Shown here one piece after another: positions 60,245 through 61,738 of a DNA stretch of 64,000 nucleotides. The number at the start of each line of letters is the position of its first letter. Position 1 is the stretch's first letter. Source of the stretch: Bdellovibrionales bacterium (GTDB taxonomy: Bacteria > Bdellovibrionota > UBA1018); NCBI GenBank assembly GCA_947380295.1, contig CANCQK010000008.1:67479-131478 (forward strand), written 5' to 3'. Position numbers and translations under genes: made by a program. The notes below the pieces were generated by a model. It was not told the origin of the DNA. It saw nothing but the letters and a program-made list of their open reading frames with translations, and searched no databases.

Positions 60245-61738
60245 ATGAAAAATTTACTTAAAAATTGGGTACTTTTAGCAGTTTTGATTCTAGGTTTTCA
60301 CTCCGAGGCGTATGCGGTAAAGCCTTGTACCGCCTGTTTTGGTGATGTAACAGATACTCAAGTGGCCGAAAAGCAAGCCCTCCAATGCCCTGTTGGCCAT
60401 GTGATTGACCAAGACTGTCTGATTCATCAAGTGAAGAGTTACGAAGATCTGAAAGCTTTACGAACTCACGGTTTAGGGTGTTGTGGAGTAGGCGGAGCCG
60501 GAGACACTTGCAAGCATAAATTTCCCCTCGATGAAGTGAGGGCTCTCTTGGGGCTTGAAGAACAGGTAGCGCTGCAGGCCCGATTCGATCGAGCTGCGAG
60601 TTCGGTGGAAGAGAGTAAGATTAAAGAAGAATTGAATCGTCTCAAGCTCGGAATCACAGAGTCTTTTGTGATCCAGTGCCCTGTAGATGGCTGTGGCGCA
60701 GCTTGCGATCGAATCGAAGGATGTAATGCAGCTCAATGCCAGAGCGAAGAATGTAGAAACCGATTTTGTTACCTGTGCCTTGAATCTCAAGAGGATCATG
60801 TGACCGGTCACGCTCACGCGAGAGCTCACAGTAATAATTACTGGGAGCAACGTCCTGGCTATTTGGAGCGCTACCACTGGTTGCTGGCTAGAAAAAATCT
60901 AGCCGCTTTATTGAAAAGTAAAGTTGAAGAGTCGACTCGTAATCAAGCCCTCGATGAGAGTCAGGCTCTCCTTAAAGAAAAGAAAATGTGGCCCATGCCT
61001 GCCGGATTGGCAGCAGGCCCATGGCTTGAGCAAGTGAGATCCAATGCTGAACTCACTCAGAATGCAAAGATTGAGCTCTTACAAAACGAGGCGATCTATC
61101 GGCGACAGATGAAAGACAAAAAGAACGACGATCTGATCGAAACAGAAATCCGTCGACTCGGTGGCCTGGTTCTCGCTTCACTCGATGTCAAAGACGCCGC
61201 TGGAATCGGTGTTCCTGCTGCAGGCGCCGGAATCGCTGCGCCTAGAGTCGCACAAGCCGCACCGGCCCACCAGGCGGCAGTGCCAGTGCCTCAAGTTGCG
61301 GAGCATGGCATCGCGCCAGTCTTGGAGGATCACCCGCGATTTAACCAGCTCAGCCAGCAGTTCAGAGCCTTGGGGAATATGTACGAGGTTGCCGGATTAA
61401 TCTGGAGTGGTGTAGCTCCGACAACGATGAAGCAAGGAGATGCCTATGCTTACTGCACTGGCCTGGGTGGCGGTGCGAGATTGCCTACGAAGGACGAATA
61501 CATCACCTTGGCGCGAGCTATGGGCTCAGTGCAGCCTGAATGTGGGGCTCCCGACTACGACGTTGCGGGTTATAATAAGCACTTGATTCCAGATATGAGT
61601 AACCGAGTTTTTTGGTCGATGTCGTTTCCTCCTCGGTGCGATGATAGTGCCTTCGTCCTCCACGGTGTTGGTGGCTACCTTTACGCCTGTAGGTGTTGCT
61701 TCTCCGAATCGGTGCGGTGTGTTGTGGGTGGTTTGTAA
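60245..61738 (+). CDS. Secreted protein with a RING-like N-terminal zinc finger, an Rcat/RING2-like module and a DUF1566-like C-terminal domain.
   Basis: Signal peptide MKNLLKNWVLLAVLILGFHSEAYA. The RING-like module is CTAC-x17-CPVGH-x5-C-x2-H...CC. The Rcat-like module CPVDGC-GAACDRIEG-CNAAQC-QSEE-C-RNRF-CYLC aligns to [32 protein letters not shown] of Ariadne-type RING2. The C-terminus (AYAYCTGLGGGARLPTKDEYITL...FWSMS) resembles DUF1566. Start set at ATG 60245. Confidence 0.55.
   Translation: MKNLLKNWVLLAVLILGFHSEAYAVKPCTACFGDVTDTQVAEKQALQCPVGHVIDQDCLIHQVKSYEDLKALRTHGLGCCGVGGAGDTCKHKFPLDEVRALLGLEEQVALQARFDRAASSVEESKIKEELNRLKLGITESFVIQCPVDGCGAACDRIEGCNAAQCQSEECRNRFCYLCLESQEDHVTGHAHARAHSNNYWEQRPGYLERYHWLLARKNLAALLKSKVEESTRNQALDESQALLKEKKMWPMPAGLAAGPWLEQVRSNAELTQNAKIELLQNEAIYRRQMKDKKNDDLIETEIRRLGGLVLASLDVKDAAGIGVPAAGAGIAAPRVAQAAPAHQAAVPVPQVAEHGIAPVLEDHPRFNQLSQQFRALGNMYEVAGLIWSGVAPTTMKQGDAYAYCTGLGGGARLPTKDEYITLARAMGSVQPECGAPDYDVAGYNKHLIPDMSNRVFWSMSFPPRCDDSAFVLHGVGGYLYACRCCFSESVRCVVGGL

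Follow-up and report, generated by a model that had tools for sequence, protein, structure and literature searches.

We studied an open reading frame (ORF) on the positive strand of a 64-kb window (the whole stretch of DNA analysed) of a Bdellovibrionota metagenome-assembled genome (MAG) contig, an ordinary piece of bacterial chromosome with about 48% GC. We are confident that its 497-amino-acid (aa) product is an exported two-part protein, in which a module resembling the RING-between-RING (RBR) ubiquitin ligases is joined to a lectin-like domain, and the same confidence extends to the family described below. Taken singly, the constituents belong to known kinds (Rcat module of the RBR type, Lcl_C domain resembling C-type lectins, Sec signal). 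An initial annotation of this DNA had proposed a fusion of an Rcat-like zinc finger with a DUF1566-like C-terminal domain. The fusion is real, but the zinc part is not a lone Rcat; it is an RBR-like module of about 300 aa without an IBR domain, in which a RING1-like region and a helix are followed by the Rcat and a helical domain. The Sec signal peptide had been overlooked.

A database search with the protein yielded 31 homologs, from 97% to about 30% identical, and 27 aligned members were scanned singly; the homologs match the target from end to end. Pfam IBR found no match in the target itself and matched 13 of these 27 (best E=1.6e-5); in the wider family, its gathering score was exceeded in P0066, P0070, P0111, P0114 and P0118. 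When the family profile was compared with PDB entries, the RING2 (Rcat) of ARIH1/HHARI was matched at E=6e-5, with parkin further down the list. The family register, C145-x4-C150-x9-C160-x4-C165-x4-C170-x4-C175-x2-C178, differs from that of HHARI (CP-KC-x9-C-NHMV-C-x4-C-x4-C-x2-C) in the spacing of the first pair, 4 residues versus 2; otherwise the Cys positions line up exactly. The presumed ligands are C145, C150, C165 and C170 for one zinc and C175, C178, H189 and H191 (plus H195) for the other, and each of the eight was kept in 62-65 of the 65 full-length family members. A local Foldseek match superposed this finger on the parkin Rcat (9c5e) with a root-mean-square deviation (rmsd) of 2.1 over 42 columns. 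The ARIH1 RING2 match and the IBR matches in homologs bear out an Rcat-type finger upstream of the DUF1566-like domain.

One cysteine of the finger, Cys160, is surplus to the eight ligands and was kept in 64/65 family members and in 79/81 more distant relatives (see below). It aligns with the Cys of the HHARI motif GGC-NHMVC, a position that is Ser in PDB entry 2m9y and corresponds to the catalytic Cys357 of HHARI. Cys160 is presumed to be the catalytic cysteine, as it fits the RBR position and exceeds the number of ligands. The Cys/His conservation as a whole is far beyond chance.

The RING1-like region upstream of the Rcat contains seven residues (C28, C31, C48, H52, C58, C79 and C89) that were 100% conserved in the 65 full-length members. 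C28, C31, H52, C58 and C79 were also kept in almost all the distant relatives that have a residue there, C48 in 73 of 81 and C89 in 41 of 81. We infer a cross-brace zinc arrangement for this region, which gave a weak zf-RING_2 match in one homolog and is included in the whole-module structural matches to RBR proteins described below. Between the two zinc regions the AlphaFold2 (AF2) secondary structure showed, in two independent models, a helix of about 36 residues (aa ~104-139) free of Cys and His, so that there is no IBR domain. Behind the Rcat, the helical domain of about 125 aa presents invariant RYHW, MWPMPAG, ELLQNE and LASLD motifs (alignments A1 and A2) and was all-helical at high predicted local distance difference test (pLDDT) values in both AF2 models. 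The ARIH1 hidden Markov model alignment continues about 50 residues beyond RING2, into what we take to be the start of an Ariadne domain; the helical domain gave no significant independent match. A WP[FM]P motif is common to the haptophyte homolog P0135 and 39 of the 81 distant relatives.

Lcl_C (PF07603, formerly DUF1566) was the only Pfam match of the target, aa 383-493 aligning to profile positions 8-116 of 117. The Pfam scan proposed with the initial annotation therefore found the domain, but below threshold (E=5.4e-4; 20.7 bits versus a gathering cut-off of 34.9). The close relatives P0026, P0029 and P0031 scored 18-28 bits, but more distant members did match: 20 of the 27 aligned homologs hit Lcl_C at E<=0.01 (best E=1.5e-10). 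In the AF2 model, block-mean pLDDT over aa 357-494 was mostly above 90 (range 80-97), and Foldseek against PDB returned many C-type-lectin-like domains at probability 1.0, including the C-terminal domain of Legionella pneumophila Lcl (8q4e_A; template-modelling (TM) score 0.57 on the target, rmsd 4.1). The call is rescued by the family-level matches, the AF2 fold and Foldseek. The conserved DUF1566 surface residues described for Lcl are a Trp and an Arg/Glu salt bridge, W315, R338 and E344 (PMC11162425); W36, R61 and E67 of our alignment A3, nearly invariant and with an Arg-Glu spacing of +6, appear to be their counterparts, as matched by eye from motifs. The DUF1566-like character claimed for the C-terminus thus holds for a divergent branch of PF07603, of which the target is not a clear member by score. 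A carbohydrate-binding domain had been named as a finding that would speak against DUF1566; this is a false dichotomy, because the Lcl region with DUF1566 is itself a C-type-lectin-like glycosaminoglycan binder (PMC11162425). In our family the domain is preceded by a lead-in, HPRFN..F.ALGNMYEV.GLIWSG, and the window copy carries several extra cysteines.

Export is predicted from aa 1-24, which read as a basic n-region, an 11-residue hydrophobic core and an A-x-A motif, with cleavage expected after AYA (signal peptides and lipoboxes were called by direct reading and a crude script). The AF2 model shows this segment as an isolated helix at residues 2-18. An equivalent signal peptide or a lipobox (LGC; …SSLGCASS…) was present in most full-length family members. 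What stands out most in a ubiquitin-ligase-like zinc protein is the predicted Sec signal. At 23413-35697 on the negative strand, 25 kb from the target, the window holds an entire type II secretion system (T2SS) operon, a possible export route for it. Lcl has been detected in culture supernatants, in a passage that also treats T2SS export (PMC11162425).

The family is lineage-restricted, with 66 or more related sequences in Bdellovibrionota MAGs and in metagenomes; several paralogs often share a genome. When one genome was scanned for each species, 8 loci turned up in 4 MAGs (with Bacteriovoracaceae, Oligoflexia and Bdellovibrionia labels), three paralogs being in one MAG and two each in two others. 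Profile searches found 62 clusters in the indexed database, and an exhaustive search of 1.84 billion representatives gave 59 family sequences at E<=1e-30. Many of the 31 homologs had precomputed PF07603 matches, one of them PF07603 plus IBR, and NCBI entries were labelled 'DUF1566 domain-containing', 'IBR domain-containing' or 'hypothetical'. The initial annotation had spoken of a novel effector architecture: the architecture is real and we found it undescribed, but it belongs to this family and is not specific to the window, and the effector role is a prediction.

Three architectures were seen: the module alone (~310-360 aa), the module with one Lcl_C domain (the majority), and the module with C-termini of unknown kind; in addition, P0099 (975 aa) has the module followed by four Lcl_C copies. 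The Lcl_C cassette moves between N-terminal modules, as unrelated N-termini precede it in P0029 and P0031, and it also occurs as small stand-alone proteins in the same lineages. A search with the cassette only found short or stand-alone Lcl_C proteins and no new architectures. Two further proteins, P0026 and the product of 11728-13314 (+) at locus L002, combine a signal peptide, ankyrin repeats, a RING-like Cys pattern, a linker and the Lcl_C cassette, which matched the cassette profile at E=6e-36. Their RING-like pattern (C-x2-C…CCG..FC.K.C…CP.CR) is read from the cysteines, with a Pfam RING E-value of ~0.3. At L002, a distance of 2.3 kb separates the gene from an RBR-Lcl_C paralog. In these proteins the lectin cassette would carry a second kind of ubiquitin-ligase-like module. 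At locus L006 of the Oligoflexia MAG CAVWVI01, a paralog is split over two overlapping ORFs, 7893-8267 with the RING1-like part and 8170-9471 with the rest, which points either to a pseudogene with a frameshift or to an error of assembly. A distant relative of the module in an Oligoflexales MAG (P0125/P0206, MFK7823468.1) has no signal peptide and ends in an R3H domain, of the kind that binds nucleic acids; export of the module is thus not universal in the phylum.

Beyond the tight family, the exhaustive search returned a tail at E ~1e-15 to 1e-9, aligned over profile positions 3-230, that shares the Cys/His skeleton and, in half of its members, the WPFP motif. Partner domains in the tail were ankyrin (16/58), protein kinase, RWD, WD40, CCCH and FG-nucleoporin, and its named members came from haptophytes and dinoflagellates: Chrysochromulina parva, Haptolina ericina, Symbiodinium natans and Polykrikos kofoidii. 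These are the nearest named relatives outside the family. Among viral predicted structures, giant-virus proteins matched the N-terminal module at E=1.6e-5 to 5.7e-4 and probability 1.0 over 178-297 columns, with annotations such as 'RNF216', 'triad3' or 'RNF216/TRIAD3' and 'RBR-type E3 ubiquitin transferase'. The module is thus common to Bdellovibrionota and microalgae or giant viruses, and transfer from eukaryote to bacterium is the simpler reading. A specific affinity to RNF216/TRIAD3 has no backing at the sequence level, as no RNF216 chain appeared in the family-profile PDB searches up to E=10; since it is suggested solely by how the structurally matching giant-virus proteins are annotated, we do not file the family under RNF216. 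On the contig of homolog P0022 (L011 1-2489), zf-MYND and SET-domain proteins, the SET match being faint, lie ~5.5 kb from the family member; this hints that genomes with family members are rich in eukaryote-type domains, those adjoining family members being ankyrin, Hint, SET and zf-MYND.

Among solved structures, the full-length AF2 model matched HHARI 5udh_A over 367 columns (Foldseek probability 0.9), and parkin as well; parkin and HHARI were also the top PDB matches of a model of the N-terminal part only (pLDDT 84.8). ARIH1/HHARI (PDB 1wd2, 2m9y, 5udh and 4kbl) is the best PDB match by sequence profile, sharing the Rcat Cys register, the position of Cys160 and an alignment that runs on into the helical region after RING2. 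It differs from the target in its IBR domain (a helix in the target), its RING1 spacing and the residues after the catalytic position (see below); furthermore, the target has a His-x-His second Rcat zinc site, is bacterial, carries a Sec signal and a lectin domain, and lacks UBA-like or cullin-binding parts. The whole N-terminal module found its best structural matches in giant-virus RBR proteins with RNF216/TRIAD3-like annotation, for example those of Hyperionvirus (A0A3G5AC41), Dasosvirus (A0A3G4ZV30) and Pyramimonas orientalis virus (A0A7M3UPC4), at E=1.6e-5 to 1e-4 and probability 1.0 over about 250-300 columns. The haptophyte and dinoflagellate proteins P0135, P0141, P0152 and P0166 have the RING1-like region, a short spacer, an Rcat with His-x-His and the WPFP motif. 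In contrast with the target, the viral and protist proteins are intracellular, have ankyrin, kinase-like or WD40 partners, and lack a signal peptide and Lcl_C; none has been experimentally characterised, as far as we found.

The lectin part shares with the Lcl C-terminal domain (PF07603, 8q4e) the Pfam family, at the family level, and the C-type-lectin-like fold, and seemingly keeps the Trp and the Arg/Glu pair; export is common to the two proteins, and T2SS genes are present in each of the organisms. Unlike Lcl, the target belongs to a divergent subfamily whose close members fall under the Pfam cut-off, with the N-terminal extension and extra cysteines noted above. Bacterial E3 effectors (NEL/IpaH, HECT-like SopA/NleL, U-box LubX and SidC) follow the logic proposed for the target, as they hijack the ubiquitin-charged conjugating enzyme (E2~Ub) of the host, and the NEL and HECT-like types use a catalytic cysteine. 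They are injected by type III or type IV systems and, unlike the target, have no Sec signal or lectin domain; we know of none that is of the RBR type, and the literature searches showed none. AB-type toxins with a lectin B moiety offer an analogy, as a carbohydrate-binding targeting domain and a cytosol-acting enzyme are combined in one polypeptide; in the target, however, no translocation domain or processing site was identified, and its enzymatic part would ligate ubiquitin, where theirs is a glycosidase or ADP-ribosyltransferase.

We infer catalytic activity and a eukaryotic target for the module, and tentatively favour, as possible rather than probable, a secreted, lectin-targeted, RBR-type E3-like effector acting on eukaryotic cells. 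The protein would be exported by Sec and then released, probably through the T2SS encoded in the window. The lectin domain would bind a glycan on the target-cell surface, as Lcl does with sulphated glycosaminoglycans, and the ligase-like module would thereby reach a eukaryotic cell, for example a grazer or a host that is an alga or protist, and by some means enter it. There the RING1-like region may recruit host E2~ubiquitin, and Cys160 may accept the ubiquitin as a thioester and hand it to a substrate.

Several observations weigh against this effector. The spacing of the RING1-like region is non-canonical and its local RING matches by Foldseek were weak; the IBR domain is missing between the RING1-like and Rcat regions. 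In the Rcat of canonical RBR ligases (parkin, HHARI and HOIP) the catalytic Cys is followed two residues later by a His that acts as general base (C-x-H). The target has C160-N-A-A, and Ala162 replaces the His in 58/65 family members and 77/81 distant relatives. Whole-module Foldseek matches to solved RBR ligases were weak (E ~1e-3 to 2e-2, TM <0.2), and the N-terminal model gave a best whole-module E=0.018 against PDB; such low scores are expected of flexible multi-domain proteins, and the library of viral predicted structures was more informative. The target has neither the collagen-like stalk nor the N-terminal helix that carries the Lcl trimer, nor a coiled-coil trimerising stalk, and a few relatives, for example P0024 and P0125 (the R3H-domain protein), lack a signal peptide. 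The strongest objections are three. Sec/T2SS substrates fold in the oxidising periplasm, where the at least 16 cysteines would favour disulfides over zinc; no membrane-translocation domain or other recognisable translocation device was detected in the target; and the Bdellovibrionota are known as predators of bacteria, which have no ubiquitin.

The main rival is a non-catalytic surface or secreted adhesin, in which Lcl_C would be the functional part and the Cys/His module a scaffold, stabilised by zinc or disulfides and descended from an RBR ligase. The export signal agrees with such a protein, lipobox variants would anchor relatives to the membrane, and the loss of the IBR domain and of the canonical His would be expected; Lcl, the best-characterised DUF1566 protein, is an adhesin (PMC11162425), and the small stand-alone Lcl_C proteins of the same lineages also fit. 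Yet a pure scaffold would hardly account for the retention of the non-ligand Cys160 in 64/65 and 79/81 sequences, conservation is stronger in the module than in the lectin domain, and many members have the module without any Lcl_C. We regard the adhesin as unlikely. A further rival, in keeping with the phylum's known lifestyle, is an antibacterial weapon directed at prey or competitors. The lectin would bind an envelope polysaccharide of Gram-negative prey, and the Cys160 module, acting in the periplasm or cytoplasm of the prey, would catalyse a ubiquitin-independent acyl or peptide transfer or sequester a factor of the prey. Delivery of predation proteins by Sec/T2SS-type export, the position of the gene in a strain-variable island of secreted proteins (see below) and cassette shuffling resembling that of polymorphic toxin systems would all fit. 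We nevertheless judge this weapon quite improbable: to our knowledge no ubiquitin-independent chemistry exists for Rcat domains, no small immunity-type gene is conserved beside the paralogs, and the ankyrin plus RING-like modules sharing the cassette, like the SET and zf-MYND neighbours, are of the type found in interactions with eukaryotes.

Bacterial systems of E1, E2 and ubiquitin-like protein (Ubl) exist (PMC10557695), and a few relatives of the target lack a signal peptide; it could be proposed that the protein is the E3 of an endogenous ubiquitin-like conjugation pathway of the Bil, Bub or CBASS type. Nearly all window ORFs of at least 150 aa were Pfam-scanned, and no E1, E2, Ubl or deubiquitinase was found among them, nor any E1, E2 or Ubl beside the L002-L004 paralogs; nor was any E1, E2, Ubl, deubiquitinase, conserved immunity gene or chaperone found around four paralogs, whose neighbours differ from locus to locus. 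Any ubiquitin machinery used would therefore not be the bacterium's own. Since the protein is also exported, away from ATP and E1/E2, we give the endogenous pathway very little credence. The closest relatives outside the family are eukaryotic or giant-viral, which raises the question of an artefact, either mis-binned eukaryotic or giant-virus DNA or a recent transfer in decay. The target, however, lies between bacterial UvrC/MFS and RecQ genes on one contig with no composition break in a coarse 2-kb GC profile, occupies the same place at 97.6% identity in an independent assembly (L009), begins with a bacterial signal peptide and is one of 8 loci in 4 MAGs. The ratio of nonsynonymous to synonymous substitution rates (dN/dS) between the target and the L009 copy was ~0.25 over the whole gene, with 0.19 in the ligase-like part and 0.29 in the lectin part, from small counts; these values indicate a functional gene, and both halves are under purifying selection. 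By these synteny and selection results, an artefact is effectively refuted and has next to no probability.

Returning to the exported E3-like effector, we consider doubtful a bolder version, in which a lineage of Bdellovibrionota obtained the IBR-less RBR-type module from haptophyte or dinoflagellate microalgae, or from the giant viruses of such algae, and sends it out via Sec and T2SS as an enzyme that a lectin guides and that gets into eukaryotic cells in the manner of an AB toxin. If true, these would be the first bacterial RBR-type E3 effectors, ubiquitin ligases would for the first time be seen to be delivered with no contact-dependent injection system, and these bacteria would attack, colonise or resist eukaryotic microbes. 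More generally, if the module is an active ligase, the RBR class joins the bacterial E3 mimics (RING/U-box, HECT-like, NEL and SidC), with a new delivery logic of Sec signal and lectin domain instead of type III/IV injection and an unrecognised interaction between Bdellovibrionota and eukaryotic microbes. If it is inactive, the family still represents a clear recruitment of a eukaryote-type domain into exported bacterial lectins. In either case the module family is a compact, IBR-less and His-less natural variant of the RBR catalytic core, which the bacteria share with algae and giant viruses, and useful for finding dispensable parts of the RBR mechanism. In line with the initial annotation, which was not aware of such a combination, we found no open-access paper or preprint on an IBR plus DUF1566 fusion or on bacterial RBR-type proteins, although absence is not proof; the same literature gave no description of the IBR-less, His-less module or of its presence in exported Bdellovibrionota proteins.

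The coordinates of the target gene and of the T2SS operon are collected in Table 1. The gene starts at the ATG at 60245, preceded ~12 nt upstream by GGAG, and its stop codon is at 61736-61738. An alternative in-frame GTG at 60206 (+13 residues) was unsupported by homologs, and the ATG was preferred because all homologs start at the Met of MK.... A promoter and terminator scan of the locus gave nothing above shuffled expectation, and an NCBIfam scan of the protein gave no match. The full-length AF2 model, built on the family alignment, had a mean pLDDT of 80.6, and the linker differs between homologs in both length and sequence.

Table 1 Features of the target gene and the type II secretion operon in the 64-kb window
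Feature	Position	Strand	Basis
Whole gene	60245..61738	+	ORF list, end-to-end homologs, dN/dS; 497 aa plus stop
Predicted Sec-type signal peptide, aa 1-24 (MKNLLKNWVLLAVLILGFHSEAYA)	60245..60316	+	n-region, hydrophobic core, A-x-A motif
RING1-like zinc region, aa 25-100	60317..60544	+	conserved C28, C31, C48, H52, C58, C79, C89
Long helix, aa ~104-139, in place of IBR domain	60545..60661	+	AF2 secondary structure, two models
Rcat (RING2)-type zinc finger, aa 140-196	60662..60832	+	ARIH1 RING2 profile match, IBR matches, Foldseek, ligand conservation
Cys160 codon, putative catalytic (thioester-forming) cysteine	60722..60724	+	alignment to HHARI; conservation
Conserved helical domain, aa 197-320	60833..61204	+	invariant motifs; helical at high pLDDT
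Ala/Pro-rich flexible linker, aa 321-356	61205..61312	+	pLDDT <50 for aa 324-353; variable among homologs
Lcl_C/DUF1566 C-type-lectin-like domain with N-terminal extension, aa 357-497	61313..61735	+	Pfam, homologs, AF2, Foldseek
GspC	34606-35697	-	T2SS operon
Secretin GspD	31750-34593	-	T2SS operon
GspE	30023-31747	-	T2SS operon
GspF	28797-30020	-	T2SS operon
GspG, then minor pseudopilins	GspG 28326-28793	-	T2SS operon
GspK	25079-26431	-	T2SS operon
PilM/GspL-like gene	23413-25068	-	T2SS operon

Other genes of the window encode an Mla transporter, aminoacyl-tRNA synthetases, UvrB, UvrC and RecQ. The L009 assembly has the target at the same UvrC/MFS-RecQ position in different surroundings. Window positions 52710-55751 form a 3-kb insertion absent from L009, with a Peptidase_MA-like ORF (sub-threshold), a PhnA/YjdM-domain ORF and a TnpB/IS605 OrfB (Cas12f-like) gene at 54336-55637; the stretch probably inserted as a mobile element beside a variable island. 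The stretch 57276-60208, which includes an 832-aa neighbour gene, is also absent from L009. Between target and RecQ, L009 carries 5.8 kb of other secreted-protein genes and a fragment of a second RBR-like gene. This fragment (L009 8804-9025, 74 aa, just downstream of the target) matched the RING1-like part of the family profile at E=6e-12 and looks like the remnant of a second paralog. L009 8999-13423 encodes two paralogous secreted proteins of ~670-690 aa with Cys-rich C-terminal halves, absent from the window.

The divergent neighbour at 57449-59947 (-) encodes a predicted lipoprotein of 832 aa (lipobox LTGC) with a Gln/Glu/Arg-rich coiled-coil region. At its C-terminus are an IBR (~57812-57970; Pfam E=3.9e-9, above threshold) and an Rcat-like finger (~57623-57766), and the best alignment of this end was with the HOIL-1/RBCK1 IBR-RING2 (8bvl, E=0.012), including a 'V.rG.PRvG' tail. 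We rejected it as a paralog of the target, since hhalign gave a 35-column IBR-type match at 36% probability; the gene encodes a second, independent exported RBR-type protein of the island. A 442-aa ORF downstream of it (56118-57446, -), with stop and start 3 nt apart, had no Pfam match; it is ~91% conserved in L009, where it is called as 390 aa with no signal peptide. The region 60000-60100, between the two divergent RBR-like genes, contains long runs of A (aaaaatagaaaaaaaaagggaaaaaaagggg) as well as a small stem-loop with T7 behind it (ctact-cggcc-agtag gggc ttttttt), which was not called by consensus scans. At 7653-8372 (-), a 239-aa ORF gave a sub-threshold match to IS200-type Y1 transposases (E ~1e-3).

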